A stretch of DNA of 20,111 nt from Candidatus Nanohalarchaeota archaeon (GTDB lineage Archaea > Nanohalarchaeota > Nanosalinia > Nanosalinales > Nanoanaerosalinaceae): assembly GCA_022729255.1 (NCBI GenBank), contig JALDAG010000015.1, forward strand, positions 1 to 20,111, read 5' to 3'. Below are positions 1-19,504 of this stretch, one piece after another. The notes below the pieces were generated by a model that worked only from the letters and a program-made list of their open reading frames with translations, had not been told where the DNA came from and ran no database searches. Both the position numbers and the translations under genes were made by a program. Positions within the stretch are counted from its first letter, which is position 1. Each line of letters begins with the position of its first letter.

Positions 1-3000
1 GGAATTAAAGGCAAATCACTGATCCTAACAACTTTTCTGATACTAATTTTCGGTCTTGTCATCGGTGTTCTTCCCGGAGACGAAGTCGATGTTGCAGGTG
101 ATACTGTTTCTGTACAGTTGGAAGAAGGATCAAATTTGATCCCTGCCCTTGATGCAGATCTAAACGATATTTTGGATGCGGGCTGCGACATAGGGCGTTT
201 CAGTGACAGCACAGTAGAGGAGCCTTTCATGTACTTCGACAACACTGTTTATGATTATGTGGAGACCGATTCCTTGAGACATGAGGGAAAGGGTCTCTGG
301 GTTCCTGTTAGAAGCGGCTGCAGTTTTGAGGCAGAAACTTATGTCGCCGAACAGATGAACTTGGGGACAGGGAAAAATGTTTTGACCTTCTCTGCCGACA
401 TCGACATCGACTTATTTGAGATGAATGACTGTCAGTTGAGTTTTTTCAGGGGAGATATATCTTCAAGAGAAGAACCATTCGCAGTTTTCCAAGATGGCGA
501 ATTCATCGCAACTGATTCCGTAAGTGAATATACTCCTGTTTATATACCTATTGAAGATGGATGTACATTTGATTTGGACGCTGCTTTCTGGGATTTAGAG
601 GTATCCTCTGATGAAGGAGGTATTATAAGGGGAGAAGAAGCAGGCCGATTTGCAGAGGGAGAAAAAATTGTTTTGAAAGCGGTTCCTGAAGAAGGATATG
701 TTTTTGGTGGATGGGAACTTGAGGGAAGCTCTGAAAAATGTGATGCTGAGGAGAAAATTTGTGAATTCGAGATAGAGGAAGATACGTTTGTCAGATCAAG
801 TTTTGTTGAAGAAGATGAACCAATAGAACCTCCTTGGGATAGCGAAGTTGAGCTGAATGTTGATTCAGGAGATCTTGTCGAGGTAGTGGAACCAGGTGAG
901 GGAGAGTTTAGTTTTGAAGAGGGACAGGCTGTCGACCTTGTTGCAGAGTTTTCACCCGATTTAGAGCATGAACCAGAATTTTCTTGGATCGGTGATCTGG
1001 AGGCTGTGGAAGACCCTGATTCTCACGAAACAATGATCGTTATGTGGGATGATTATCATGTAAAAGCTGTATACGAGGGCGAAAAAATCGAAAGAGAAAC
1101 TTTCGAAGTATATATCTATTCAGGAGATTTTGTTGAGGTTGTTGAGCCCGGTGAAGGTTACCATGAATTTAAGGAAGGCGAAGTAGTTGAACTGGTAGCT
1201 GAAGTTTCTCCAGATCTCGAAACCGACAAAGGATTTTCATGGATAGGAGATATTAGAACATTAGAAGATTCTGAATCCTTGGAAACACAAGTAGAAGTAC
1301 AAAGAGAGATGGAAATCGGCGCTGATATAGATATGTTGGGAGATACTTCGTACAGGGACTGTATTGATGAAAATGGAGAGATAGCAGAGGCTGACGGCGA
1401 ATACATATGTAGGATTGAAGGTGACAGCTGCCCATCCGGATGGGAACAGTATGAGGAATGGTCAACAACAGAGTCTGATACCTGTACAAGTAGCAACTTC
1501 TTCTGTGGAAGTTCGTGTAGCACTGATAGCCATGAATGGGATAATGAACCCGTTGAAACTTGTACTTATCAGAGAACTAGGAGAGGGATTCTACCCACAT
1601 GTCGCACTGATACATGTGAAGCAGAACTTGTTGAAGTCGGCTGTATAAGAGGAGATGCTCCAGAAGAATATGAAGAGGAAACCTATGATCTTATGATTAA
1701 TGTGTATGGAAGAGGTACTACACAGCCTTCAGGTAGACGAAGACATAGTTTTGAAGAGGGTGAAGAAGTCGTAGTAACTGCTGAACCTGCCGAAGGATTT
1801 TTATTCGCTGGTTTTAGAGGAGACTGTCAAGGCACCGAGAATTGTACATTGGAGATGAATTATGACAAGAGAGTAACGGCAACATTTGAGAGAGACAGGG
1901 AGTGCGAGACTGATAGTGACTGTCAACACCTTTTATGCCCTCAGGCTGTAGGTATGGACACACCTATTTGCGATCCTGAGACCAATACATGTAAATGTGG
2001 AGATGGTGAAGAAGAAGAGGTAGTTGAGGAATACGGGCTCAATATTGATATAGAAGGAGAAGGTTCAACAGAACCCCCTGAAGGTTTCAATACATTTGAA
2101 GAAGGTGAATCTGTTGAATTAGTAGCTGAATCAGAAGATGGCTGGAAATTTGATAGATGGTCTGGAAGATGTTCTGGTAGTGACAAAGAATGCGAATTAA
2201 CTATGAACTCTGATAAAAACGTAACAGCACACTTCAAAGAAACAGAACTTATTGGAGAAGGTTCCTTTGATGATTGTGTGTCTGCTGAAGGTGAGGTAGT
2301 CGAGGTTGATGATGGATATATATGTAGGTTTGATAATAGTAGATGTCCGCACCCACGCATCAGCGATCATCAATGGGAACAGTACAAGGACTGGAGCTCA
2401 ACATCTTCTGACTACTGCAGCAGCAGTAACATACTTTGCGGGACTTCATGTAATACTGAAAGTCATGACTGGGCTAACGAACCAGTTGAAACTTGTACCT
2501 ATGAAAGAACAAGAAGCGGTATTAGCATAGGATGTACTGAAACTGTTTGTAGAGCTGATGTCGATCAGATAGGATGTATTATCACAGAGACTGATGAGGA
2601 GGATTATGACAACGACAATGACAACGACAACGACAATGACTACGAGAATGACAATGACAACGACAATGACTACGAGAATGACAATGACAACGACAATGAC
2701 TACGAGAATGACAATGACAACGACAATGATGATGAGGAAGAAAAAATATGTGAACCAGGAGAGACCAGAAGATGTAGTACAACTTGTACATACAGAGAGT
2801 GTGGAGGAGTCAACGACAATTCTTGCAGAAGACAGAGAGAAACAGTCAGAGGAGAGATGGAGTGTCGGGATGACGGTACTTGGGGATCATGTAGTGATAT
2901 AGGACGCTGCCCTGAGGACCAGTGCAGATTCAATTCTGATTGTAGATTTGATGATGATGAAGATGACGAATTCGAAGAATGCGTTGAAAACTGTGCTGAT

Positions 3001-3057
3001 GATCACTCATCACCTTGTTGGGGAGACACAGCATGCTGTGAGGACAGGTGTTCGTAA
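1..3057 (+). CDS. 5'-truncated large secreted or membrane-anchored surface protein: very acidic, cysteine-rich, modular. It contains InlB B-repeat-like domains, two copies of a ~100-aa Cys-rich module, a small Cys knot, an Asp/Asn repeat linker and a C-terminal Cys-rich domain.
   Basis: Frame 1 is open from nt 1 with no stop, so the track start at TTG 118 is not the real start and the gene begins upstream of the window. Nt 19-78 encode the hydrophobic LILTTFLILIFGLVIGVL signal/anchor followed by PGDEVD. Repeated motifs of the G..V.L.A.P..G..F.GW.G.C.G...C...M..D..V.A.F type (e.g. FEEGEEVVVTAEPAEGFLFAGFRGDCQG..CTLEMNYDKRVTATFE and FEEGESVELVAESEDGWKFDRWSGRCSGSDKECELTMNSDKNVTAHFKE) resemble the Listeria/archaeal InlB B-repeat fold. 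More than 55 Cys residues occur in spaced patterns. Glu+Asp content is extreme. The stop is TAA at 3055-3057. Confidence 0.8.
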   Translation, partial: GIKGKSLILTTFLILIFGLVIGVLPGDEVDVAGDTVSVQLEEGSNLIPALDADLNDILDAGCDIGRFSDSTVEEPFMYFDNTVYDYVETDSLRHEGKGLWVPVRSGCSFEAETYVAEQMNLGTGKNVLTFSADIDIDLFEMNDCQLSFFRGDISSREEPFAVFQDGEFIATDSVSEYTPVYIPIEDGCTFDLDAAFWDLEVSSDEGGIIRGEEAGRFAEGEKIVLKAVPEEGYVFGGWELEGSSEKCDAEEKICEFEIEEDTFVRSSFVEEDEPIEPPWDSEVELNVDSGDLVEVVEPGEGEFSFEEGQAVDLVAEFSPDLEHEPEFSWIGDLEAVEDPDSHETMIVMWDDYHVKAVYEGEKIERETFEVYIYSGDFVEVVEPGEGYHEFKEGEVVELVAEVSPDLETDKGFSWIGDIRTLEDSESLETQVEVQREMEIGADIDMLGDTSYRDCIDENGEIAEADGEYICRIEGDSCPSGWEQYEEWSTTESDTCTSSNFFCGSSCSTDSHEWDNEPVETCTYQRTRRGILPTCRTDTCEAELVEVGCIRGDAPEEYEEETYDLMINVYGRGTTQPSGRRRHSFEEGEEVVVTAEPAEGFLFAGFRGDCQGTENCTLEMNYDKRVTATFERDRECETDSDCQHLLCPQAVGMDTPICDPETNTCKCGDGEEEEVVEEYGLNIDIEGEGSTEPPEGFNTFEEGESVELVAESEDGWKFDRWSGRCSGSDKECELTMNSDKNVTAHFKETELIGEGSFDDCVSAEGEVVEVDDGYICRFDNSRCPHPRISDHQWEQYKDWSSTSSDYCSSSNILCGTSCNTESHDWANEPVETCTYERTRSGISIGCTETVCRADVDQIGCIITETDEEDYDNDNDNDNDNDYENDNDNDNDYENDNDNDNDYENDNDNDNDDEEEKICEPGETRRCSTTCTYRECGGVNDNSCRRQRETVRGEMECRDDGTWGSCSDIGRCPEDQCRFNSDCRFDDDEDDEFEECVENCADDHSSPCWGDTACCEDRCS
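871..1350 (+). repeat. Intragenic tandem duplication of a ~85-aa (255-nt) domain (VEVVEPGEG..F.EG..V.LVAE.SPDLE....FSWIGD...)
   Basis: Two adjacent copies (about 871-1125 and 1126-1350) are clearly alignable at protein level (LVEVVEPGEGEFSFEEGQAVDLVAEFSPDLEHEPEFSWIGDLEAVED vs FVEVVEPGEGYHEFKEGEVVELVAEVSPDLETDKGFSWIGDIRTLED). The DNA has diverged, so this is an old duplication. Confidence 0.7.
1357..1647 (+). repeat. Cys-rich module, copy 1 (DCIDENGE...W.QY..WS....D.C.SSN..CG.SC.T.SH.W.NEPVETCTY.RTR.GI...C....C.A.....GCI)
   Basis: About 97 aa with 10 Cys. Paralogous to 2269-2580. A conserved 45-nt stretch gaacc(c/a)gttgaaacttgtac(t/c)tat... is near-identical between the copies (1546-1590 vs 2479-2523). 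Confidence 0.7.
2269..2580 (+). repeat. Cys-rich module, copy 2
   Basis: DDCVSAEGEVVEVDDGYICRFDNSRCP...WEQYKDWSSTSSDYCSSSNILCGTSCNTESHDWANEPVETCTYERTRSGISIGCTETVCRADVDQIGCI aligns residue-for-residue with copy 1, including all Cys positions. Confidence 0.7.
2608..2727 (+). repeat. In-frame tandem repeat: three perfect 30-bp copies (gactacgagaatgacaatgacaacgacaat at 2638-2667, 2668-2697, 2698-2727) preceded by one degenerate copy (2608-2637). It encodes (DYENDNDNDN)n.
   Basis: Counted directly in the sequence. Unit length is a multiple of 3 and the copies are 100% identical. It sits as a low-complexity linker between Cys module 2 and the C-terminal Cys domain. Confidence 0.9.
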
Positions 3058-4694: not shown

Positions 4695-5156
4695 ATGGAG
4701 AAACTCAACTCAAGGATAAAAAAACTTTGGATATCTCTTGGTTTGTTTTCAGGACTGTTAATAGGTGTTTTACCAGCAATCTACACATATTTTTACTTGG
4801 AAAATTTACTTTTATCGTTAATCAGCATCTCTTTATTTCCCATAATCTTTATCTGGTATGCCGTGAAGAGATTTGCGAACTGGAGATTCGATGTAAGAGA
4901 GGATCATATAGAGATAAAAAAAGGAGTATTCATCATCGTTTCGATATATGCACCCTACGTAAGAATCCAGCACATAGATACAGTGAGAAATCCTGTTTCA
5001 AGAATACTTGGTTTAAGCTCTCTTAGGATTTATACCGCTGGTTCGAAAGGAGCTGATTTAACTATACCCGGCCTTGATAAGGAAAAAGCTGAATACATAC
5101 AGGAACAGCTTAAACAAAAAGCTATCCAGTCCGAGAAAGGTTTTGATGCTGTATGA
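4695..5156 (+). CDS. ydbS: YdbS-like membrane protein with bacterial PH (bPH_2/DUF304) domain
   Basis: 153 aa. Two N-terminal TM helices are followed by the ...RIQHIDTVRNPVSRILGLSSLRIYTAG... signature typical of bPH_2. Its stop overlaps the next gene's start (ATGA at 5153-5156), as in Bacillus ydbST. Confidence 0.7.
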   Translation: MEKLNSRIKKLWISLGLFSGLLIGVLPAIYTYFYLENLLLSLISISLFPIIFIWYAVKRFANWRFDVREDHIEIKKGVFIIVSIYAPYVRIQHIDTVRNPVSRILGLSSLRIYTAGSKGADLTIPGLDKEKAEYIQEQLKQKAIQSEKGFDAV

Positions 5157-6559
5157 AATTATCCAAGAAAACAATAGTTTACAGAGGTATATCTAATACA
5201 GGAGGCGTACTGGTTTTTCTATTATTTGGCGGTATTTTCAATCCTTTGATACTTTTCCTTGGTTTTATACCATTATCATTAGTTGCGTTCGGCTACATGT
5301 ACGTTTACTGGAAGAACTATGACATATTTTTTGAGGATCACGATATAAAGATTGTTTCAGGTGTTTTCTCAAAGAAAGATCTTGATATACCGGTTAGAAG
5401 AATTCAGAACATCAATATCAAGGAAAATATTTTGCTCAGGATCCTTGAAATCTCCGAGGTACATATCGAGACAGCTGGCGGTAGCGAAACCGAAGCAACC
5501 ATAAAGTTCTTGGAGAAAGAAGACGCAGAAAAATTGAGAGAGAAAATAAGGAATCTCAAGAGCAGAAGGAAAAAAGAAACTGAAGAAGAAGCTCAGAAAG
5601 ACGAAGAAGAGTACGCACTAACTTTTAAAAAACTCTTGGTATACAGCTTGATAGATTCGATCTCGATAAAGTTGTTGTTGCCTCTCTTAATTTTTATCGG
5701 AGGTTTCATATTTGCAAATTATTATTTAGAAGTCTTTTTACATATAATAGGAGCATTTTTTGGACTGCTTGTCATTGCATTGTTGATACTAGGATTAGAG
5801 ATGATATCAACCGGTGTAAAAGTTTTTGAGAATTATTATGGTTTCAAGGTAGTTAGAAAAAATGATTCTCTTGAATACGAGAAAGGTCTTTTTAATCGGC
5901 AGGGAGGAACAGTACCTATTGAAAAGTTACAGAAACTTGTTATAGAGGAAAACATAGTTGAAAGGATACTGGGTTATGCTACTTTAAAAGTTGAGACAGC
6001 AGGAGCAAGCATAGCTGAGAAAGTATCTACCACAAAAGTTATCGTGCCATTGGATAAAAAAGAAGAGGTAATAAAAACAGCGGAAAAAATAGGAGAGTTC
6101 GAATATCCGGTTAAAATGGAAGAAGTGGCCGAAAGAGCGGAGGAAAGATACTTCAGAAGATATCTATTGATCGGACTGACTGTTTTCTTAATCTTAGTAC
6201 CGTTTGCATTGACTATACTGAACCCGATGGTGTTTTTGATACCTTTAACTATAGCTATGATCAGTAAAAAAGCCTCCAACCTGAAATGGATTAACCAGAG
6301 GTACTTTCTTGGCGAGGAAAACATCTTTGTAAGGAAAGGGTTCTGGAGACGTAGAACCTATGCAGTACCTTATTTCAGGTTCCAGAACTTTATAGAATCT
6401 CAGACAGTTCTCCAAAAAAGATGGGATCTCTCAAAAATTACTGTTGATACGGCTGGTGATCTCTGGATTAACCCGGAAATAATTGATTTGGACAAGGAGT
6501 CTAGCGGAGAACTCATCCAAGAACTTTTTGACAGATTCAACAGAAGCATCTGCAACTAG
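5153..6559 (+). CDS. ydbT: YdbT-like membrane protein with three bPH_2 domains
   Basis: 468 aa. Repeated TM pairs each precede a PH-like segment ending in ...TAG motifs (EVHIETAGGSE, LKVETAGASIAE, KITVDTAGDLW). The 4-nt overlap with the upstream gene indicates translational coupling. Confidence 0.7.
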   Translation: MKLSKKTIVYRGISNTGGVLVFLLFGGIFNPLILFLGFIPLSLVAFGYMYVYWKNYDIFFEDHDIKIVSGVFSKKDLDIPVRRIQNINIKENILLRILEISEVHIETAGGSETEATIKFLEKEDAEKLREKIRNLKSRRKKETEEEAQKDEEEYALTFKKLLVYSLIDSISIKLLLPLLIFIGGFIFANYYLEVFLHIIGAFFGLLVIALLILGLEMISTGVKVFENYYGFKVVRKNDSLEYEKGLFNRQGGTVPIEKLQKLVIEENIVERILGYATLKVETAGASIAEKVSTTKVIVPLDKKEEVIKTAEKIGEFEYPVKMEEVAERAEERYFRRYLLIGLTVFLILVPFALTILNPMVFLIPLTIAMISKKASNLKWINQRYFLGEENIFVRKGFWRRRTYAVPYFRFQNFIESQTVLQKRWDLSKITVDTAGDLWINPEIIDLDKESSGELIQELFDRFNRSICN

Positions 6560-6613: not shown

Positions 6614-7555
6614 ATGAACAATCTAGAAAAAGGTCTCAACTACCAGGAAGCTCTCAGGTTTTCCGAACTGGTTCACCGAGATTTTTTCGATGAAAAAGGA
6701 TTCCCATTTGTTGGACACCCGGTCACCGTGGCTAGAAATATTTGTTCGGACGGTTATAATAAAAAAGAAGTTATCTCAGGATTTCTTCATGACGCAGTTA
6801 AGCATGATTACTATCTTATAGATGAGATAAAGGAAAAATTTGGTGAGGATATCGCTGAAACGGTTTACAGGAATAACAGCCCTATACCCTTTAATAAAGG
6901 GGATAGTGCAATAATTATAGATCGTTACGAGGAAGAAGACCTCAAAAAATTTGATATATCCGGTGAAATGCTTAGAAAAGGTTCTAAAAACGTTCAAAAA
7001 GCTTTAAAGGATTCTATAAATTTCCATAAAGGCCAGTTCAGAAAGTTGAAGAAAATTCCTTATGTCACTCATCCTATAGGTGTGGCTAGAAACCTTTCAC
7101 ATTATGGGTGCGGAGAGGACCTGGTAACAGCAGGGCTATTCCACGATGTTTTGGAGATGACGGATAAACAGTATGAAGATATAAAGGATGGTTACGGTAA
7201 AAAAGTTGCTGATATAGTTGGAGAGTTAACTGATGACCCGCAGGATTCTTGGGAGGATCGGAAGATTAAAAATATAGAAAATTTTTACCGATGCTCAAGA
7301 AGCGTCAGACTAGTTGGTATGGCTGATAAGCTTGACAACCTTGAATCGATGCAGAGAGATTACAAAAGGCTTGGTGAGGATACATGGGAAAAATTCAATA
7401 GACCTAAAGAGTTTCACGCATGGTACTTCGGAAGTCTAAAAGAAGCTTTCTCTAATTTTAAGAATTTAGAACCTGAAAAACACATGTTTGAAAGGTTTGA
7501 CACCATTTTTGAAGAAGTATTTGAGGATTATGAGAAACTCAAAGAGATAATCTGA
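6614..7555 (+). CDS. Tandem HD-domain protein, RelA/SpoT-type (p)ppGpp-hydrolase-like (HD_4)
   Basis: Two repeats of H-P..VA......G.....-AG-LHD..E-T (VGHPVTVARNICSDGY..SGFLHDAVKHD and VTHPIGVARNLSHYGCGEDLVTAGLFHDVLEMTD). The downstream ADKLDNLESM resembles the SpoT ADRLHNM helix. TATA-like ctcttttaaattc lies about 25-35 bp upstream. Confidence 0.6.
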   Translation: MNNLEKGLNYQEALRFSELVHRDFFDEKGFPFVGHPVTVARNICSDGYNKKEVISGFLHDAVKHDYYLIDEIKEKFGEDIAETVYRNNSPIPFNKGDSAIIIDRYEEEDLKKFDISGEMLRKGSKNVQKALKDSINFHKGQFRKLKKIPYVTHPIGVARNLSHYGCGEDLVTAGLFHDVLEMTDKQYEDIKDGYGKKVADIVGELTDDPQDSWEDRKIKNIENFYRCSRSVRLVGMADKLDNLESMQRDYKRLGEDTWEKFNRPKEFHAWYFGSLKEAFSNFKNLEPEKHMFERFDTIFEEVFEDYEKLKEII

Positions 7556-7660: not shown

Positions 7661-7852
7661 TTACAGAACCTTTACGTTAACAGCTCTTGGTCCTTTGTCT
7701 CCCTGTTCTGTCTCGAACTCGACTTCATCTCCTTCGTTCAGAGTTTCGCCGTCTACGTCACTAATGTGGACGAAAACGTCGTCTTCCTGATCTTCAGGAT
7801 TGATGAATCCATAGTTCTTAACATCGTGGAAGAACTTTACTTCACCTTTCAT
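7661..7852 (-). CDS. cspA: Cold-shock protein (CspA family, S1-like OB fold)
   Basis: 63 aa. MKGEVKFFHDVKNYGFINPE...VFVHISDV matches the RNP1/RNP2 motifs (KGFGFI / VFVHF) of CspA-family proteins. Confidence 0.85.
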   Translation of the reverse strand: MKGEVKFFHDVKNYGFINPEDQEDDVFVHISDVDGETLNEGDEVEFETEQGDKGPRAVNVKVL

Positions 7853-7989: not shown

Positions 7990-8529
7990 ATGGAAGAAGA
8001 AAATTTTAAGAGTATCTGGGGAAAGAAAAAAGTCTTGCTTACCGCATTACTGGTAATTGTTTTACTGGTTGGTGGAGGATTTTTTGTATTAAACACAGAA
8101 TTTGACGATTTTTTTGGTGAAGAAGAAATTGAACGTTTTGGGGAAGAAATAACATCTGATGAACTAAGTCTCTTTGAAGCCGCTCAAGAAGGAGATGTGG
8201 AGACTTTGAAGGAACTTATCGAAGAAGTTGATAATATAGATGTAGAGAGTAATTATGGTAGAACTCCTATGATGCTGGCAGCCAACAACGGTCATACCGA
8301 AGCAACCAGGCTTTTGTTGGAAGAAGGAGCGGATATAGGTAAAAAGAACATTTACCATGAGACTGCTCTTATGATGGCAGCTCATGAAGGACACGTGGAA
8401 ACTGTTGAATTGTTGATAGAATACGGTGCTGACGTGAACGTTGAGAGAGATGACGGCACACATATTCTTGATTTCACTGAACACGAAGAAATAGAAAATA
8501 TCTTGAGGCAACACGGCGCATCGAGATGA
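7990..8529 (+). CDS. Membrane-anchored ankyrin-repeat protein (N-terminal signal anchor, acidic linker, about 3 ANK repeats)
   Basis: KSIWGKKK plus the hydrophobic VLLTALLVIVLLVGGGFFVL stretch. ANK consensus G.TPLM.AA..GH...LLL..GAD in NYGRTPMMLAANNGHTEATRLLLEEGADIG, YHETALMMAAHEGHVETVELLIEYGADVN and DDGTHILDF. The TATA-like aataaataatata lies about 25 bp upstream of the ATG. Confidence 0.8.
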   Translation: MEEENFKSIWGKKKVLLTALLVIVLLVGGGFFVLNTEFDDFFGEEEIERFGEEITSDELSLFEAAQEGDVETLKELIEEVDNIDVESNYGRTPMMLAANNGHTEATRLLLEEGADIGKKNIYHETALMMAAHEGHVETVELLIEYGADVNVERDDGTHILDFTEHEEIENILRQHGASR

Positions 8530-8594: not shown

Positions 8595-9914
8595 ATGGAT
8601 AAACCTAGATTTTTAGCCAAACTTTTCTCCATCCTCCTTTGGTTGATCATATTTTTGACAGTTTTCCAGTTCTTGATAGGAGCAAGAAACATAGCTAATT
8701 ATGAAAAACAAGTACTTGAACAAAATATAATACATGAAATCGATAACAGGATTGAAAGAGGTATAGATGTATTTACTGAGATAAAGGAGAAAGAAGAGCA
8801 CTACTATGTTTCCATGATAAAAGACGAGATCGGAAAGGTGGAGTACGAGATACCCAAAGAAAATGACAGGGAGTTCTCGGTATTTCTATTCGGTGGTTCA
8901 TCAGTCGTTTTTCCTGTTGGAGAACATATGAACTTCCCTGAACATCTCGAAGAAAAGGTAAAAAATAGGACGGAAGCTAATTTTTCGATCTACAACTTTG
9001 GTATGCCGGGTGTATCCACAAGTACAATACTTAACTCTCTGGAAAGGATTCTTGAAGTGAAAGAACCCGACATGGTGGTGATATATACAGGTCACAACGA
9101 CTATTTTTTAACACATCACATGTTTACGGAAAACACCCCTGATATTTTTTATGATGAAAACGTTTTGTGGCCTCTTTACAACAGTCTGGGTCCCTTGATT
9201 GATAGAGAAAGCGCTTACATGTATGATTCCAAGAGGATAACGGAGTACAGGATGATGACCTTAGCACATTCCATAGGATTGGTTGATGGAAAAAGAATAT
9301 TTGATTTAAAGAAAAAGACCGATAAAATTATAGAGGAGGAATACTTTGAGGAAAATATTAAAGATATCCAGAGTTTAACAGAAGAGAGAAGTATTGATTT
9401 GGTGTTCCTAACAACCATATCCAGGATCAGAGGAGTTAGAACAGAAGAGATGTTTCTTTCAAAGGATGAGATGGCAGAATTTCATGATTTTGTGGATAGA
9501 GCTGAAAGTTATTTGGAACAAGAGGAATTCGATAGATCTCTCGAAATATTTGGAAAAGCACTCGATATAAATGATAATAGCTCTAAAATCTATGAGAGAA
9601 TAGGTGAGATATATGAGGGTAGAGAGGAATACATGAAAGCCCAGGAGAACTTTATAAAATCTAAGGACAGAAATGTTTTCGGTCAGGATCCCAGAGCTCC
9701 TTCTTATTTCAATGAAATACTTAGAAATGTTGAGAAAGAGAAAGTATACACAGTTGATGTTCGGAAAAAGTTACTGGAGGATGAGGATTATCCTTTGATG
9801 GACAATGATTTCTTTGACAGTGAAATACATATAGGAGGAGATAACACTGGTCAGGTTGCTGAAAAAATCTTTTTAGGACTTGAAAAAAGAGGATTGATTG
9901 ATGATTTCGAATAA
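8595..9914 (+). CDS. Membrane-anchored SGNH/GDSL-family hydrolase with inserted TPR-like repeats (paralog A)
   Basis: N-terminal TM (FLAKLFSILLWLIIFLTVFQFLIG). SGNH blocks: I VFLFGGSSV, II NFGMPGVS, III IYTGHNDY, V FFDSEIH. TPR-like helices (SYLEQEEFDRSLEIFGKALDIND..IYERIGEIYEGREEYMKAQENF). Clear paralog of 11917-13215. Confidence 0.65.
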   Translation: MDKPRFLAKLFSILLWLIIFLTVFQFLIGARNIANYEKQVLEQNIIHEIDNRIERGIDVFTEIKEKEEHYYVSMIKDEIGKVEYEIPKENDREFSVFLFGGSSVVFPVGEHMNFPEHLEEKVKNRTEANFSIYNFGMPGVSTSTILNSLERILEVKEPDMVVIYTGHNDYFLTHHMFTENTPDIFYDENVLWPLYNSLGPLIDRESAYMYDSKRITEYRMMTLAHSIGLVDGKRIFDLKKKTDKIIEEEYFEENIKDIQSLTEERSIDLVFLTTISRIRGVRTEEMFLSKDEMAEFHDFVDRAESYLEQEEFDRSLEIFGKALDINDNSSKIYERIGEIYEGREEYMKAQENFIKSKDRNVFGQDPRAPSYFNEILRNVEKEKVYTVDVRKKLLEDEDYPLMDNDFFDSEIHIGGDNTGQVAEKIFLGLEKRGLIDDFE

Positions 9915-9949
9915 TCGATTCGACCTCAAAAAAATATCTAGGTGATTCT

Positions 9950-10933
9950 ATGGAATTAGGAAAATATTCTGATATGGATCTGTTGGAAAAGGTCGTTGTT
10001 CATACACCAACTACTACTTCTATAGATTCGGTAAAAGAAAACCCTGAAAAACATCTTTTCAATGAAATACCTGACAAGAAAAGGTTTCTTGAGGAAAAAA
10101 CCATGTTCACAGATATTTTGAAGGATAACGGTGTTGATGTGTTACACCTGACTGAACTACTGATGAGGGCAGAGAAAGACCTAGATGATAAATTAATCGA
10201 TGAGATTGTTAATCTGATGTATGTTAGGGATATAGGTACTGTTATCCTGGATTATCTGGTGAGATGCAGTATGTCGGAGAGATTGAGACAGAAGGAGGAA
10301 GAAATATTTGATTTTTTAATAAAGCATCAAGGCTTAAATCGTGATTACGAGGTTTTAAGACCGGTAAAACCGATTGAAGGAGGGGATATATTTATTCCTA
10401 GGTATAACACGATGATTGTTGGAAACTCCTTGAGAACATCGGAGCAAGGAATTATTGAACTAGGGGAAGGATTGGTAGATAGCTCTATAGATAAAATAAT
10501 TATGTTAAATGTTCCTAGAGAGGATAGTGCGATACATCTGGATATGGTGTTTTCCCAGCTTGAGAAAAACCTTTTCATGGTTGATAAAAGATTTTCAAAA
10601 AATATGGAGTGTTTTTTGATAGAAGTATGTTCTGATGGACCGAAAATGAGGAAAAATAAAAAAAGTATCGATGAAATTTTGAAAGAAGAATTAGGTAGAG
10701 ATGTGGAAGTTTTAAAAGTAGATGAGAGAAAAGAACAGAAGATGTGCGGATTTAACGTCTTACCGATTGAAAGTTCGAAAGTCATAGCTTTTCAAGAAAA
10801 CAGGAATATAAACAGGTTGATACGAAACATGGGAATTGAAGTCATCGAGGTAATGGGACGAGAACTGATGAAGGGTAATGGCGGACCAAGATGCATGACG
10901 TTGCCATTAAAAAGGAATAGAGGTTCAAGATAA
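9950..10933 (+). CDS. Arginine deiminase family (guanidino-modifying/amidinotransferase superfamily) enzyme, short form
   Basis: 327 aa. ADI-like N-terminus (L.KVVVHTP...LF...........F...L...GVDVLHLTELL). Catalytic His motif SAIHLDMVFSQL (ADI: MHLDTVF). C-terminal catalytic Cys motif GNGGPRCMTLPLKR (ADI: GGG.CM..P). SD AGGTGA at 9940-9945. It lacks the ~80-aa helical insertion of classical 410-aa ADIs. Confidence 0.65.
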   Translation: MELGKYSDMDLLEKVVVHTPTTTSIDSVKENPEKHLFNEIPDKKRFLEEKTMFTDILKDNGVDVLHLTELLMRAEKDLDDKLIDEIVNLMYVRDIGTVILDYLVRCSMSERLRQKEEEIFDFLIKHQGLNRDYEVLRPVKPIEGGDIFIPRYNTMIVGNSLRTSEQGIIELGEGLVDSSIDKIIMLNVPREDSAIHLDMVFSQLEKNLFMVDKRFSKNMECFLIEVCSDGPKMRKNKKSIDEILKEELGRDVEVLKVDERKEQKMCGFNVLPIESSKVIAFQENRNINRLIRNMGIEVIEVMGRELMKGNGGPRCMTLPLKRNRGSR

Positions 10934-10935
10934 TT

Positions 10936-11910
10936 ATGGTCAAGAGAAGTCTGGTAAAGTTAAGTAATAATAAAAAAGAGAGGTTAGAAAAGATACTTTC
11001 TATATCAGAATATGTCAAAAGACAGGATTATTCTGATAAAAAACTCGAAGGAAAAAATATAGCTCTTTTGTTTGAAAAACCCTCGACAAGAACAAGATCT
11101 GCGTTTGAAATAGCTGTAAAAGATTTAGGAGGTAACACAGTATTTTTGGATAAAGAAGAAATTCATTTAGGTTATAGAGAAAGTCTAGAGGACACTGCAA
11201 AGGTTCTTGAAAGTTATTTTGACGGTGTAGGTTTTCGAGGTATGAGACATGAAAAAGTTGAGAGACTGGATCAACACACATCAATCCCTGTTTGGAATCT
11301 TTTAACTGATAAATTCCACCCTACGCAGGTTTTATCCGATTTTTTCACGATTGAAGAAGTCTTTGAGAAGGATTTGTCAGATATAAAGCTTGCATATATT
11401 GGTAACGGTATCAACAATGTTTTAAATTCTTTGATAGTCGGGGCAGCGAAGACAGGTATGAATATGAGGATTGTAACCCCTGAAGAACTCAGACCTGATA
11501 GAAAATTAATGGTAAAATCCAGAAACATAGCCAGGAAACAAAATTCTACTTTAAAGTGTTTTTCAAACGTTGAAAAAGGTTTGGAGGAAGTTGATGTAGT
11601 TTATACAGATGTATGGGTTTCCATGAATGATCCGAAATCAGAATGGGATGAAATGATAGATAAACTTAGTCCATACAGTGTTGACAATGAAAAAATGGAT
11701 TTGACCTCCGAAAACTCTGTTTTTATGCACTGTCTTCCAGCCTTACATGATAAAGAAACAATTCTAGCTGACAAAATATGTGAAAGACATGGAATCGAAT
11801 GTTTGGAAGTCAGTGACAATGTCTTCAGATCCGATAGTTCGATTGTTTTTCAGCAGTCAGAGAACAAGTTGCATACCCTGAAATCCTTGTTGATAGATTC
11901 GTTTGATTAG
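10936..11910 (+). CDS. argF: Ornithine carbamoyltransferase
   Basis: 324 aa. Carbamoyl-phosphate motif STRTR (FEKPSTRTRSAFEIA), HPTQ, the ornithine-binding region DVWVSMND (canonical DVWVSMG) and the OTC-specific FMHCLPALHD (ATCase has HPLP). It starts 2 bp after the upstream gene. Whether it is catabolic (arcB-like) or anabolic cannot be decided. Confidence 0.85.
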   Translation: MVKRSLVKLSNNKKERLEKILSISEYVKRQDYSDKKLEGKNIALLFEKPSTRTRSAFEIAVKDLGGNTVFLDKEEIHLGYRESLEDTAKVLESYFDGVGFRGMRHEKVERLDQHTSIPVWNLLTDKFHPTQVLSDFFTIEEVFEKDLSDIKLAYIGNGINNVLNSLIVGAAKTGMNMRIVTPEELRPDRKLMVKSRNIARKQNSTLKCFSNVEKGLEEVDVVYTDVWVSMNDPKSEWDEMIDKLSPYSVDNEKMDLTSENSVFMHCLPALHDKETILADKICERHGIECLEVSDNVFRSDSSIVFQQSENKLHTLKSLLIDSFD

Positions 11911-11916
11911 GAATAC

Positions 11917-13215
11917 CTAGTTAACCATAGAACTTTCTTCAAGACCCTTGAATATTTTCTTGGCTATTATTTCGTTGTATTCAGAGTTGAAGTGAACCCA
12001 GTCATCAAAGAGATCGGGTTTAAACAGAAGTTTATTGTTGTCTTCCTTCAACAACTTTTTGAGATCTACAACTGTTACGTGAGAACCGTTCAAACTTCTG
12101 ATAAAATTGTTTATGGAGGATTTGGCTCTGACGTCATAGCTGAAATCATCCTTGTCTCTGGCAATCCTTAAACTTCTCAGAGATTTATCCGTTTCTCCCA
12201 ACTCTTCATATATCAGGCCTTTCTTGTAATGAATCATAGCATTCTTACTGTTTAACTTTTCCGCATCTTTGAAGTTTTCTATAGCCTGTTCATAATTTTG
12301 TTTATTCAAATCTTCGAAACCTCTATCCCTATAATTGATGAAATCATCTCTCGATGTTTCATTTACGAAATCATAATCTATCTCAAAAGGCCTTATCTTT
12401 AGATTTGAACTTACTGTGATGAAAACTGTTTCAACGCCTTTTCTCTCGGTGATTTCCACAATTTTTTCCATATTTGTCTTATAAGAGTCTAAAGCATTTT
12501 CATTGACTAAATTCATTATGTCATATACCTTTTCCGAGTCAATTATACCAACTGACATACCTAGATTGATAAGATAAGGTGTAATGGTATTTCTTTTCAA
12601 ATCCTCTATTTCGTGATTAGGCCTTCCTGAAAGAAAGGTCTTTCTGTAGAGATACCATATCAGATTATTTTCAAGTAAATCAAGTTCATCCCTGATTATA
12701 TTATGGGATTCAAAGTGGTCGTTGTGCCCGGAGTATATCAGAACCATTTCAGGTTTTTCCATATTGATGCTTTTGTTTAAGCTTTTGACAATTGATGTGG
12801 AACGAGCACCACTTTTTGCTAGGTTATAGACTTTTTTACTCTGATTATTTTCCTGTTCAAAAATGTTTTCGAGATAAAGAGGTATATATTTCTTTTCGCA
12901 GAAAGGTGTGACCATAGAGGAACCACTAAAAACATATATATGATCTGAAGCATTACTATCAATCTTGAATGTTTCCCTAAAACATTTTCTTTCTATCTCA
13001 ATAAACTTTTCATTATTTGAATTCAAATTATCAAAGTAATGACCATTCTCATTATATCTAAGACCTCTGAAACTCGTGTTTAGTTCCTCTAGATCAATAT
13101 TATTGATATTATTAGAACTTGAAACAAACTGAATTATAGGGATGATGGTCAAGGACCATAAAATTAAGATGAGGACTATAAAAGTTTTTTCCCATGGTTT
13201 TGAGGTTTCATCCAT
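11917..13215 (-). CDS. Membrane-anchored SGNH/GDSL-family hydrolase with inserted TPR-like repeats (paralog B)
   Basis: N-terminal TM (TFIVLILILWSLTIIPIIQFV). Blocks: I YVFSGSSMV, II NLAKSGARS, III IYSGHNDH, V LFDDWVH (DxxH). TPR-like LNKQNYEQAIENFKDAEKLNSKNAMIHYKKGLIYEELGETDKSLRSL. Collinear alignment with 8595-9914 over about 350 aa. Its stop is 6 bp from the convergent OTC stop. Confidence 0.65.
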   Translation of the reverse strand: MDETSKPWEKTFIVLILILWSLTIIPIIQFVSSSNNINNIDLEELNTSFRGLRYNENGHYFDNLNSNNEKFIEIERKCFRETFKIDSNASDHIYVFSGSSMVTPFCEKKYIPLYLENIFEQENNQSKKVYNLAKSGARSTSIVKSLNKSINMEKPEMVLIYSGHNDHFESHNIIRDELDLLENNLIWYLYRKTFLSGRPNHEIEDLKRNTITPYLINLGMSVGIIDSEKVYDIMNLVNENALDSYKTNMEKIVEITERKGVETVFITVSSNLKIRPFEIDYDFVNETSRDDFINYRDRGFEDLNKQNYEQAIENFKDAEKLNSKNAMIHYKKGLIYEELGETDKSLRSLRIARDKDDFSYDVRAKSSINNFIRSLNGSHVTVVDLKKLLKEDNNKLLFKPDLFDDWVHFNSEYNEIIAKKIFKGLEESSMVN

Positions 13216-14982: not shown

Positions 14983-15001
14983 GATATAACAGTGTTATAT
15001 C
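14983..15001. promoter_or_regulatory. Perfect 19-bp palindrome GATATAACA-g-TGTTATATC (9-1-9), 48-66 bp upstream of the wHTH ATG and overlapping the stop codon of the DUF45 gene
   Basis: Verified by reverse complement. Upstream of probable TATA-like boxes (ttaaaaag 14959-66, tctatacc 14971-78) for the 14738-14935 gene. Confidence 0.5.
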
Positions 15002-15719
15002 ACCTTCTGTTCAGATAATCCTCCTTAGAAAAAACAAGCTCATGACTTTTTTCTTTCAACCATTGACGCCCTTTTCTGTAATCAGGAAATTTTTCTTCAA
15101 GACTTTTCCAGAAATTCTTGTCATGTTTCATATTTTCAAGATGAGTTAATTCATGAGCAACAACATAGTTTAAGACTTTTTCAGGTCCCAGGCATAACTT
15201 CCAGTTGAAAGAAAGGTTATTCTTTGAGGAACAGCTTCCCCACTTGGTCTTCTGATCCCTGATAAATATCTTGTTGTAGTCCTTTTGGATCTTCTTGGAG
15301 AAAATTCTTACTCTCTTCTTTATCTCCATTTTTGCTTCCCTTTTCAATATATCTCTGACTTTATCCTTGATCGATTTTTCTCCGATGTATCTTTTCGCTA
15401 TTAGAATATAATTATCTCTTAACTTATGGCTGTTACCATCTATTATCTTAATCTTTCTATACTTCCCAAGAAAAGGTATGGTTTCTCCCTCTTCGAAAAC
15501 CCTTTCAGGCAATTTTTCGATGTAACTATCGTATTCTCTTTTTTTACTAAGAACCCAATCCAAGTTTTCATCCAAAAATCTTTCAGGATCCAAAAAACTT
15601 TTTTTAGGTATCACAACCCTTAAAACTCCAATACCAACATCTATACGGGCATTTTTAGCTTTTTCACTTTTCCTTATATCGTAATCAAGACAAAGACCCG
15701 GTCTCACAAATTTAGGCAT
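15000..15719 (-). CDS. DUF45/YgjP-family zinc metallopeptidase-like (WLM/SprT-like HExxH) protein
   Basis: 239 aa. C-terminal HELTHLENMKHDKNFWKSLEEKFPDYRKGRQWLKE matches the HEL.H..E.NHS..FW.LV....PDY......WL motif of the YgjP family. Confidence 0.7.
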   Translation of the reverse strand: MPKFVRPGLCLDYDIRKSEKAKNARIDVGIGVLRVVIPKKSFLDPERFLDENLDWVLSKKREYDSYIEKLPERVFEEGETIPFLGKYRKIKIIDGNSHKLRDNYILIAKRYIGEKSIKDKVRDILKREAKMEIKKRVRIFSKKIQKDYNKIFIRDQKTKWGSCSSKNNLSFNWKLCLGPEKVLNYVVAHELTHLENMKHDKNFWKSLEEKFPDYRKGRQWLKEKSHELVFSKEDYLNRR

Positions 15720-15794
15720 ACAAAATAAATGTTTTTATTCCACTGTTTAATATCCTGATGGTTTCTTTTAGAAGAGGAGGATTATTTGTAAGCG

Positions 15795-16232
15795 TCAATC
15801 TAAAATATTTTTTGCGATATACTCTGCAGGAGGTATGGTTTCGATGGATTCCAATTCTTTCCTAGTGAACCATCCTACATCAGAAATCTTATGGTCGCTC
15901 AAGTCTTTTTCTCCTCCTTCAAGATGGCATAGATAAACTGTGATCAGGACATGCACCCTCTTTTCTTCGTATTCAAGCATGTAGCTGAAGACATCTTTGA
16001 AAAGTTCAGGGTTCGAAACCTCGTAACCGGTCTCTTCATCAACCTCTCTAACAGCAGTTTCTTCGGGATCTTCCCCAAACTCTATTCTTCCACCGGGTAA
16101 CTCCCATTTACCGTGAAGTTTTTCGTCACCTCTACTTTCTCTCCTAACAAGAAGCAATTCTTTTCCTTCTCCTTTCATCACCGCTCCACAAGAAACCATG
16201 AAACGTATTTCTTTTTTACATGCATCCTTCAT
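15795..16232 (-). CDS. NUDIX hydrolase
   Basis: Perfect Nudix box GGRIEFGEDPEETAVREVDEETGY (G.5E.7REU.EE.GU). 145 aa; an alternative start lies at Met11. GAGGT 8 nt upstream of ATG 16232. Confidence 0.85.
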   Translation of the reverse strand: MKDACKKEIRFMVSCGAVMKGEGKELLLVRRESRGDEKLHGKWELPGGRIEFGEDPEETAVREVDEETGYEVSNPELFKDVFSYMLEYEEKRVHVLITVYLCHLEGGEKDLSDHKISDVGWFTRKELESIETIPPAEYIAKNILD

Positions 16233-17981: not shown

Positions 17982-18302
17982 CTATAGCCTTTCTTCAACC
18001 CATTCAACTATATCATCCGATTCCATAACACCTGAAAAACCATCTTTCTTCTCTCCATCTATAAATAAGACGACATGAGGAATACTTCTAACTCCAAGAT
18101 CTTCTGAGACTTCAGGCAACTCATCTATGTTGACCTTCACAAAATTAACGGAACTCATCTCTTTACCACACTTCTCAAATTTAGGTCCGAGTTTTTTGCA
18201 TGGGAGACACCATTCAGCCCAAAAATCCACTACCACGGGGTTTTCTTCGGATTTTTTCAGGACCTTTTTTTCAAACTCTTCCTCATTCTTTATCTCTTCC
18301 AT
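17982..18302 (-). CDS. trxA: Thioredoxin
   Basis: 106 aa. Active site WAEWCLPCK (Trx WCGPC variant) and cis-Pro context SIPHVVLF. Its start is 11 bp downstream of the stop of the Trx-CcdA gene. Confidence 0.85.
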   Translation of the reverse strand: MEEIKNEEEFEKKVLKKSEENPVVVDFWAEWCLPCKKLGPKFEKCGKEMSSVNFVKVNIDELPEVSEDLGVRSIPHVVLFIDGEKKDGFSGVMESDDIVEWVEERL

Positions 18303-18313
18303 AAATATTCACC

Positions 18314-19504
18314 TCACAAAAACGGCAAAAAATACTGCAGGTAGTAGTAAGCCAAGAAAAACATGATTAGAGAGGCTGCAAGTGTAGTCCATGTAACCAC
18401 ATTTTCTTGGTCGAACCACATTTTTTTCGTTAAAACCGCTCCAAGGAAAATAACAAGTTCTATGAACATGTAAAAGAACAGGTACATCAAAATATAAGCC
18501 CCTGAAGCCATCGTAGTAACACCGGCGTCTGCCAGCACCCCTGTGAATACAAGTGGAAGACCTATCGAACACGGCAGTTCAACTATTACCATCACCAGTG
18601 CAAAAAGAATAATTATACCTGCTGTTGCAAACAAACCTGATTTAGGGTTTTTAAGGACTTGGGTGACTTTTCTTCTCACCTTTGAAACGTACTTGTTCCC
18701 TGTGGTCTCACACGTGGGTCCGTACTTGTAAAACTGCAAAAATTCCTTGAAAAAATAAATACCTGCTGTAAGTGCTACAAGACCTATAAATAATTCTAGA
18801 AGCCCTAGATAACCTATTATAGCGTTTATTAGGCCGTACCATGCGAATACTATGATTCCATAAACTGAGACTGTGGTCAGAATAAAGAGTCCTCCATAAA
18901 AAAGTATTTTCTTCCTTGAATCAAGTTTCAAAACGATGCCAAGTATCAATAACAAAGCTCCTATACTACAGACATTGAAACCATCTGCTGTACCTAGTAC
19001 AGTGGCCAGCAAGGGTAAGGAAAATTTGGATATATCTGTTTCACCTATAAACGGAAGATTAACCATTCTTTCATCTCTATCACCTTCATCGACTTTACCC
19101 TTCACAACGTTTTCTATACCTCTCTGTATGGTTGAATCGAACCCTTGGAAGAACTCTCCACCCACAAAAGTCATGGGAACAGCTATCCTTTCGATAGTTA
19201 CATTGTATTCTTCGGCAAGATCGTCAAGTTTTTGCATAGATTCTTCATCATAAATGTTGTGCTTGTAAACATCCAGTTCAGGATGGTCTTCAAAAAGGGT
19301 TTGGTGGAACTTTTCTTGATCAGTACATACAGGACAACCATCCATGTAAAAGTAGTGGTACTCTATTTTACTTTCTTCATCTGAAACATTGTTATTATCA
19401 TCTCCGATTGTTTCTGTTCCACTTACAGCTCCAATAAGAAATACCGAGATCGCTAATATTACTAGAAGTGTTTTGATAATTCTTTTCATGTGTTCCACCA
19501 ACAA
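18314..19504 (-). CDS. Fusion of an extracytoplasmic thioredoxin/glutaredoxin-like domain (CPVC) to a CcdA/DsbD-type transmembrane thiol-disulfide electron transporter
   Basis: N-terminal signal/anchor (IIKTLLVILAISVFLIGAVSG). Trx-like YFYMDGCPVCTDQEKF....MTFVGGEFFQGF. Then 6-8 TM helices with the two conserved CcdA Cys, in FNVCSIGALLLILG and VELPCSIGLPLVFTG. Confidence 0.8.
   Translation of the reverse strand: MLVEHMKRIIKTLLVILAISVFLIGAVSGTETIGDDNNNVSDEESKIEYHYFYMDGCPVCTDQEKFHQTLFEDHPELDVYKHNIYDEESMQKLDDLAEEYNVTIERIAVPMTFVGGEFFQGFDSTIQRGIENVVKGKVDEGDRDERMVNLPFIGETDISKFSLPLLATVLGTADGFNVCSIGALLLILGIVLKLDSRKKILFYGGLFILTTVSVYGIIVFAWYGLINAIIGYLGLLELFIGLVALTAGIYFFKEFLQFYKYGPTCETTGNKYVSKVRRKVTQVLKNPKSGLFATAGIIILFALVMVIVELPCSIGLPLVFTGVLADAGVTTMASGAYILMYLFFYMFIELVIFLGAVLTKKMWFDQENVVTWTTLAASLIMFFLAYYYLQYFLPFL

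Follow-up and report, generated by a model that had tools for sequence, protein, structure and literature searches.

Two described systems come closest to the locus considered here, which lies in a stretch of 20,111 nucleotides from an archaeon of the family Nanoanaerosalinaceae (the window, to which all positions refer unless a contig or a numbered locus is named) and consists of genes for an arginine deiminase (ADI) and an ornithine carbamoyltransferase (OTC) bracketed by A and B, two paralogous membrane-anchored SGNH hydrolases with tetratricopeptide repeats (TPR). One is the ADI pathway, whose arc genes are usually clustered. The other is the known unit sxtI-sxtJ-sxtK-sxtL of the cyanobacterial saxitoxin cluster, in which SxtI is an O-carbamoyltransferase using carbamoyl phosphate, SxtJ and SxtK are small membrane proteins and SxtL, a GDSL-like protein of about 426 aa, is the proposed decarbamoylase; L. 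wollei, in which sxtI is truncated, has no SxtL, and no experimental characterisation of the functions of SxtJ, SxtK and SxtL has been reported (PMC2679770, PMC2885083, PMC3037375). Our analysis places A and B in a widespread family that occupies the SxtL position in carbamoyltransferase cassettes of several phyla. We tentatively see in the locus a source of carbamoyl phosphate coupled to SxtL-like enzymes of the envelope, a reading that stands nearly level with that of a plain fragment of the ADI pathway. The features of the locus are the following.

8595-9914, forward strand: paralog A, a membrane-anchored SGNH hydrolase with a TPR insert, A-type with SxxH in block V (open reading frame, homology to B, invariant SGNH residues)
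9915-9949, forward strand: intergenic gap between A and the ADI gene, with a Shine-Dalgarno-like GGTGA and the A/T-rich AAAAAAATAT (read from the sequence)
9950-10933, forward strand: short-form arginine deiminase, a guanidino-group-modifying fold without the 5-helix domain (PF02274, alignment, AlphaFold)
10936-11910, forward strand: ornithine carbamoyltransferase (TIGR00658, OTCace_N and OTCace domains, OTC matches in the PDB)
11917-13215, reverse strand: paralog B, a membrane-anchored SGNH hydrolase with a TPR insert, B-type, convergent with the OTC gene (Lipase_GDSL, TPR_11, AlphaFold)
7990-8529, forward strand: membrane-anchored ankyrin-repeat protein, directly upstream of A (Ank, Ank_2 and Ank_4 domains)

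The coordinates given for the four open reading frames in the initial annotation are borne out by the sequence, as are the gaps of 35 bp between A and ADI, 2 bp between ADI and OTC and 6 bp between the two stop codons of OTC and B. The products are 439 aa (A), 327 aa (ADI-like protein), 324 aa (OTC) and 432 aa (B) long, and their anatomy had been described correctly: a transmembrane anchor and a TPR insert in the SGNH fold, a short ADI and an OTC. That A and B are paralogs is confirmed by an end-to-end alignment with 26% identity and 51% positives (E 9e-47), in which all four of the matching blocks quoted earlier are found. The assignment of the two proteins to the SGNH class by profile holds for B, which scores 37.9 bits with Pfam Lipase_GDSL (cut-off 23.6) and 32.1 bits with TPR_11 (cut-off 26.8). 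It does not hold for A, which reaches 18.7 bits with Lipase_GDSL, with a TPR match likewise under threshold, though A is a homolog of B at E 9e-47. The residues Ser99, Gly163, Asn165, Arg363, Asn369 and His408 (B numbering) are invariant in 12 archaeal and bacterial family members, A among them. Block I in the A/B family reads GSS or GGSS and not GDS, with Ser99 as the nucleophile; block III reads GHND (G163, N165) and block V of B reads DxxH. The block V quoted for A (FFDSEIH) does align with that of B, but the Asp of the motif is replaced by Ser in A (FDSEIH), as it is in the A ortholog P0125. The AlphaFold model of B (pLDDT 88.4) consists of a long N-terminal helix (residues 6-38) and an SGNH core, with TPR helical hairpins (286-355) placed between the strand region of block III and block V; in a Foldseek comparison with the PDB its top matches are GDSL esterases, TesA and acetyl xylan esterases (TMt 0.6-0.75, E down to 2e-5). 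Judged by predicted fold and catalytic residues, A and B are true SGNH hydrolases. Because Lys and Arg residues precede the hydrophobic helix in both, the positive-inside rule puts the catalytic domain outside, and A and B probably face outward. With SGNH/GDSL hydrolases such as TesA, GDSL esterases, acetyl xylan esterases and PatB-type enzymes they share the flavodoxin-like fold and the Ser, Gly, Asn and His blocks. They differ from them in the roughly 140 helical residues, TPR hairpins included, that lie between blocks III and V, in the N-terminal membrane anchor, in GSS for GDS in block I, in the Ser that replaces the block V Asp of A, and in having no MBOAT or AT3 protein beside them.

The link of this family to carbamoyl transfer comes from its gene neighbourhoods. 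A word-indexed homologue search with B found one true relative and an exhaustive profile search was needed, with a top list dominated by TPR-only proteins; it uncovered a large family with the A/B architecture in many bacteria and some archaea. A search with a TPR-free profile gave 42 matches, none of them named SxtL, and tblastn of a bacterial family member against the plasmids of PLSDB gave no match. For the 92 loci considered outside the window, including 80 from GTDB and nine from JGI, we clustered all neighbouring genes without bias and named the recurrent ones by Pfam. The recurrent neighbours are of two kinds. The first comprises generic envelope genes, for PorV, PpiC-type peptidyl-prolyl isomerase (PPIase), CarboxypepD_reg outer-membrane proteins and a PMT_2/TPR glycosyltransferase. 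The second is a NodU/CmcH-type carbamoyltransferase (Carbam_trans_N/C), usually accompanied by the small membrane proteins PF19588 (SxtJ) and PF19451 (DUF5989). A Carbam_trans gene is present within 6 kb in 14 of the 92 loci, and in seven of the 40 whose flanks reach 5 kb or more in each direction; the link spans six bacterial phyla and archaea, and the carbamoyltransferase-linked members are dispersed across the family tree. Carbamoyltransferase, SxtJ, DUF5989 and SGNH/TPR genes are collinear in genomes of Calditrichota (three) and Pirellulales (one), namely L039, L050, L059 and L070, and variants of the cassette occur in Bacteroidota, Fidelibacterota, Gemmatimonadota, Alphaproteobacteria and archaea. 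The collinear operons, at 7311-11719 in L039 and 3874-9547 in L070, resemble a general sxtIJKL-like cassette outside toxin clusters. In the literature searched we found no description of DUF5989, or of a carbamoyltransferase-SxtJ-DUF5989-GDSL cassette, outside saxitoxin.

The likeness to sxtI-sxtJ-sxtK-sxtL has three parts. Homologues of A and B fill the fourth slot, after Carbam_trans, PF19588 SxtJ and the SxtK-like PF19451 DUF5989, in several phyla; the archaeal family members, at 425-443 aa, match SxtL (about 426 aa) in length; and the substrate of the transferase in the block, carbamoyl phosphate, is what the OTC of the window makes. The difference is that the window has no SxtI-, SxtJ- or SxtK-like genes and no toxin pathway. 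The closest archaeal relatives of A and B outside the window lineage are found in L010 (259-4921), where the co-directional order is SGNH/TPR, DUF5989, a 65-aa open reading frame without a Pfam match, NodU-type carbamoyltransferase and SGNH/TPR. There a pair of SGNH/TPR proteins also brackets a carbamoyltransferase, and in a neighbour-joining tree the pair is sister to the A/B clade. Both L010 and a second locus, L009 (2-1756), are archaeal, with 40-44% GC, and in both this one-strand arrangement is followed by a convergent metallophosphoesterase gene. In a metagenome-assembled genome (MAG) of the Chitinophagaceae (L065, 9629-18490) the carbamoyltransferase is flanked by an SGNH/TPR protein and a divergent 405-aa GDSL protein, and a TPR/Omp28 protein and an MFS_3 transporter come next. 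An in-situ swap of a carbamoyltransferase cassette for ADI-OTC is not supported: the L010 pair shows no one-to-one orthology to A and B, and its flanking genes are different ones.

The ADI-like protein matches Pfam ADI (PF02274) at 158.8 bits, while on the arcA equivalog TIGR01078 it scores 161 bits, far under the cut-off of 489.1. An alignment of 20 sequences, with ADIs of 395-427 aa, explains this low score by the absence of about 68 columns, which correspond to the helical domain of the longer enzymes; a short loop is missing as well, and the earlier claim that the helical insertion is lacking is thereby upheld. The same alignment shows that the ADI-invariant positions are all kept (R93/D94, M108, R113, E116, E143-G-G-D146, R162, H196-L-D198 and C315), among them the Cys, His and Asp/Glu residues of catalysis and those of the propeller that bind arginine. 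Two of these, R113 and R162, would correspond to the arginines that bind the substrate carboxylate in the P. aeruginosa and M. arginini structures. The AlphaFold model (pLDDT 88.7) finds ADIs as its best PDB matches (E 1e-26, TMq 0.87-0.89, TMt 0.70-0.72); nitroimidazole hydrolase, AGAT, DDAH and ArgZ follow at E 1e-14 or worse, and the last three of these classes trail the ADI structures by 12 orders of magnitude. With DDAH and other minimal guanidino-group-modifying enzymes the window protein shares a bare five-module propeller of DDAH-like size; unlike them it is clearly of ADI type, with E 1e-26 against 1e-13 and the ADI-specific invariant residues. Taken together, the alignment and the predicted structure identify it as a real arginine deiminase that has lost a domain, rather than as a DDAH or agmatine deiminase. 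The short form is rare: among the best 120 of 600 ADI homologues only the window protein and P0005 (320 aa) have it, the former being about 80 aa shorter than all but two of these 120, and a third short ADI is encoded in L004 (5481-6464). The ADIs without the helical domain make up a small clade of their own in three lineages (window 9950-10933, L005 3484-4446, L004 5481-6464). The L005 gene lies between an Amidohydro_1 gene and DHFR without an OTC gene, so the short form can stand apart from both OTC and SGNH/TPR genes. ADI is a therapeutic enzyme, and independently of any coupling to its neighbours the domain-less protein is a natural minimal arginine deiminase, useful for learning what the helical domain does.

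The OTC passes the equivalog TIGR00658 with 346.1 bits (cut-off 280.85) and does not pass the models for putrescine, acetylornithine and aspartate carbamoyltransferase. Its alignments with bacterial OTC structures in the PDB span the whole protein at 260-280 bits, and it has the motifs STRTR, HPTQ and HCLP, with the SMG loop reading SMN. With only 2 bp between them, the ADI and OTC genes form one unit. The ADI reaction is irreversible. The Nanoanaerosalinaceae, a DPANN lineage of soda-saline lake sediments with MAGs of about 0.76-0.88 Mb at 76-81% estimated completeness, are reported to be without de novo synthesis of amino acids, purines and pyrimidines (PMC9765267). On both grounds the sensible direction is the catabolic one, from arginine through citrulline to ornithine and carbamoyl phosphate.

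As in arcABC and arcD loci, the ADI gene precedes the OTC gene, the two are co-directional and tightly spaced, and catalytic motifs are kept in both products. In contrast to those loci, carbamate kinase and antiporter are missing and the ADI lacks the 5-helix domain. The initial annotation had rightly called the locus non-canonical, there being no arcC or arcD in the window, and had allowed that these genes might sit just outside it. This is not so over the 35 kb examined of the source contig, a metagenome contig of 157 kb from ENA: among the called genes of contig 122118-157050 there is no carbamate kinase (AA_kinase/arcC), no arcD-type arginine/ornithine antiporter and no amino-acid permease. 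The text and tables of the paper on the Nanoanaerosalinaceae, whose supplementary tables we searched for the names and KEGG orthology identifiers of arcA, arcC and OTC, make no mention of ADI, OTC or carbamate kinase (PMC9765267).

The history of the bracket can be followed in a few relatives. The left part of the window is collinear with JALDAH010000028 of 'Candidatus Nanoanaerosalina archaeon NHA23' at 85-96% protein identity. That contig (L013) ends inside paralog A, its truncated terminal gene being 93-96% identical to A. Pairwise scores and the neighbour-joining tree give three groups: A with P0125 (31% identity), B with P0002 (45% identity) and the sister pair P0126/P0127. On this evidence the split between A and B is old, and a recent inverted duplication is excluded by their 26% identity and by the closer ortholog that each has elsewhere. 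P0002 is encoded in L004, in the same convergent position beside OTC. The order there is Ank, ADI and OTC, then convergent B, then Band7, with identities to the window proteins of 45% for B, 54% for OTC and 37% for ADI. The ankyrin gene of L004, where A is absent, abuts the ADI gene, and its place upstream of the ADI cassette is thus kept. A bPH_2 gene pair, a YgjP-like metallopeptidase gene and a NUDIX gene (window 4695-6559 and 15000-16232) are likewise absent from the otherwise syntenic L004. Since these differences are of the same kind as the absence of A, the region turns over by insertions and deletions of single genes or gene pairs.

We propose, with the reserve already expressed, that the ADI without its helical domain would hydrolyse L-arginine to citrulline and ammonia, that OTC would phosphorolyse citrulline to ornithine and carbamoyl phosphate, and that the SxtL-like A and B would, on the envelope side, take the carbamoyl group (or another esterified group) off their substrates or pass it on. 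This proposal is made because the A/B family fills the SxtL slot of cassettes whose transferase uses carbamoyl phosphate, and because A and B, long diverged, both adjoin the sole carbamoyl-phosphate-making genes in view. It draws support from the fact that the only recurrent enzymatic partner of the family uses carbamoyl phosphate. Furthermore, with no carbamate kinase in 35 kb and with pyrimidine synthesis reported absent (PMC9765267), carbamoyl phosphate would need another consumer. Gene neighbourhoods thus hint at a functional coupling of ADI-OTC with the SGNH/TPR proteins. The idea of a carbamoyl- or envelope-related function had been put forward in the initial annotation on a different basis. 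It gains from the position of the family as fourth gene of carbamoyltransferase-SxtJ-DUF5989 cassettes in seven lineages, while the pairing with ADI/OTC on which it was built does not carry it.

Several observations weigh against such a coupling. The pairing of SGNH/TPR with ADI/OTC genes, which had been described as recurrent, is found in none of the 91 other loci when these are searched by tblastn with the window ADI and OTC, the only further case being L004, which belongs to the same lineage and keeps B alone. L004 is not independent evidence, its region being broadly syntenic with the window apart from several indels, of which A is one. Near the gene for the A ortholog P0125, which adjoins radical-SAM, epimerase and RFC genes, no carbamoyl gene is seen. 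In the family as a whole 78 of the 92 loci have no carbamoyltransferase, and most bacterial members sit among generic envelope genes (PorV, PpiC-type PPIase, outer-membrane beta-barrel-like proteins). The nine distant loci from the scan of JGI metagenomes contain no ADI, OTC or carbamoyltransferase. Neither the window nor the 35 kb of contig has a carbamoyltransferase of the NodU/SxtI type, SxtJ or DUF5989, and tblastn for small open reading frames in the window that might resemble SxtJ or DUF5989 gave chance-level matches only. A and B are likened to SxtL (e.g. ABI75102) by position, GDSL class and length only. As to transcription, B is convergent with OTC and so cannot share its transcript, and the ADI gene may have a promoter of its own: upstream of the L004 ADI there is a clearer TATA-like element, TTTTTATAA, compared with AAAAAAATAT and GGTGA in the gap of the window. 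Finally, a carbamate kinase may be encoded elsewhere in the genome of about 0.85 Mb.

This last possibility is central to the explanation that competes most closely with a carbamoyl-group function, and which we consider almost equally plausible, namely that the locus is a fragment of a plain ADI pathway. A carbamate kinase encoded elsewhere would then yield ATP and ammonia for a fermentative symbiont, and A and B would be unrelated esterase neighbours in a compact, gene-dense genome. ADI and OTC are, after all, two of the three enzymes of a well-known pathway; the ADI pathway has been acquired by, and is beneficial to, episymbiotic Saccharibacteria (PMC8764695), and an ADI derived by lateral gene transfer has been reported in the DPANN Micrarchaeota (PMC8407392). 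The want of a conserved SGNH/TPR adjacency outside the lineage, the convergent orientation of B and the indel at A, which resembles those at the bPH, YgjP and NUDIX genes, all agree with this explanation, as does the mix of unrelated membrane proteins encoded by the surrounding genes. It accounts less well for the lack of arcC and arcD within 35 kb. It also makes a coincidence of the fact that a family linked to carbamoyltransferases in 14 of 92 loci flanks both sides of the only carbamoyl-phosphate-generating genes seen.

A different role for A and B, as esterases or transferases of O-acetyl or other acyl groups on S-layer or host-derived glycans or lipids, by analogy with PatB, Ape and AlgX, would remove the carbamoyl link and make ADI-OTC irrelevant to them. 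The fold matches to generic SGNH esterases, acetyl xylan esterases, TesA and PatB agree with it, and so does the place of bacterial family members among envelope and type IX secretion system genes. The specific resemblance to AlgX, AlgJ or PatB for which a check had been advised was not found, however: PatB ranks 24th among generic SGNH matches, and AlgX and AlgJ are not prominent. Nor is there a partner gene, since no window protein matches MBOAT or AT3 (Acyl_transf_3), so that the SGNH proteins of the window lack the acyl-translocase partner of extracytoplasmic O-acyltransferase systems such as AlgX/AlgJ, PatA/PatB and OatA. As the carbamoyltransferase cassette is moreover the only enzyme-encoding neighbour that recurs across phyla, we regard an acyl-group function as improbable. 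Least likely of all, in our view, is that the short ADI-like and OTC-like enzymes use other substrates, such as agmatine with putrescine, methylarginines or peptidyl-arginine: this would fit the score of 161 against 489 on the arcA equivalog, the absence of a whole domain and the SMN reading of the OTC loop, but it is opposed by the retention of all ADI-invariant residues, including R113 and R162 with their presumed carboxylate role, by the lead of ADI structures over DDAH, AGAT and ArgZ, and by an OTC that passes its own equivalog and scores 228 against 500 on putrescine carbamoyltransferase.

Some other genes of the window deserve mention. The protein encoded at 118-3057 on the forward strand (979 aa, or 1023 aa as called on the contig) is Cys-rich and very acidic (pI 4.05, 27% Asp plus Glu), and has three InlB B-repeat (Flg_new_2) domains and duplicated modules of about 250 aa; a tandem repeat at 2606-2729 (30 bp x 4.1) encodes DNDNDNDYEN. 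A role at the surface of the symbiont or in adhesion is probable. At 17982-19504 on the reverse strand a thioredoxin gene adjoins that for a polytopic membrane protein of 396 aa, which carries the motif CPVC in its N-terminal part, matches nothing in Pfam or NCBIfam and may serve as a thiol-disulfide relay of the DsbD/CcdA kind. Two more genes may have come from bacteria, one with a bacterial-type cold-shock domain (about 7661-7852, reverse strand) and one for a protein with two HD_4 (RelA/SpoT-like hydrolase) stretches (6614-7555, forward strand).

The ADI, the OTC and the SGNH hydrolases are each of a known kind. What is new is the domain-less ADI, the recognition of the flanking proteins as members of a widespread family in the SxtL position, and the combination of this family with a carbamoyl-phosphate generator in place of a carbamoyltransferase. 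We speculate, with considerable doubt, that the SxtL-like SGNH/TPR proteins are the outward arm of a widespread carbamoyl-transfer system that is fed by ADI-OTC in Nanoanaerosalina, host arginine being spent on O-carbamoylating molecules of the envelope or the host surface, or on recycling their carbamoyl groups, rather than on ATP or besides it. If ADI-OTC and the SGNH/TPR proteins are not coupled, what remains is an arc cluster of the ordinary kind, incomplete and set between two envelope esterases. The cassette of SxtJ-, SxtK- and SxtL-type proteins occurs in archaea and in no fewer than six bacterial phyla. If the coupling is true, it would offer a functional handle on these three proteins, whose annotation has stayed at unknown, or only at 'proposed decarbamoylase', ever since the description of the saxitoxin cluster, and it would represent an unusual fate of arginine-derived carbamoyl phosphate in a genome-reduced archaeal symbiont.

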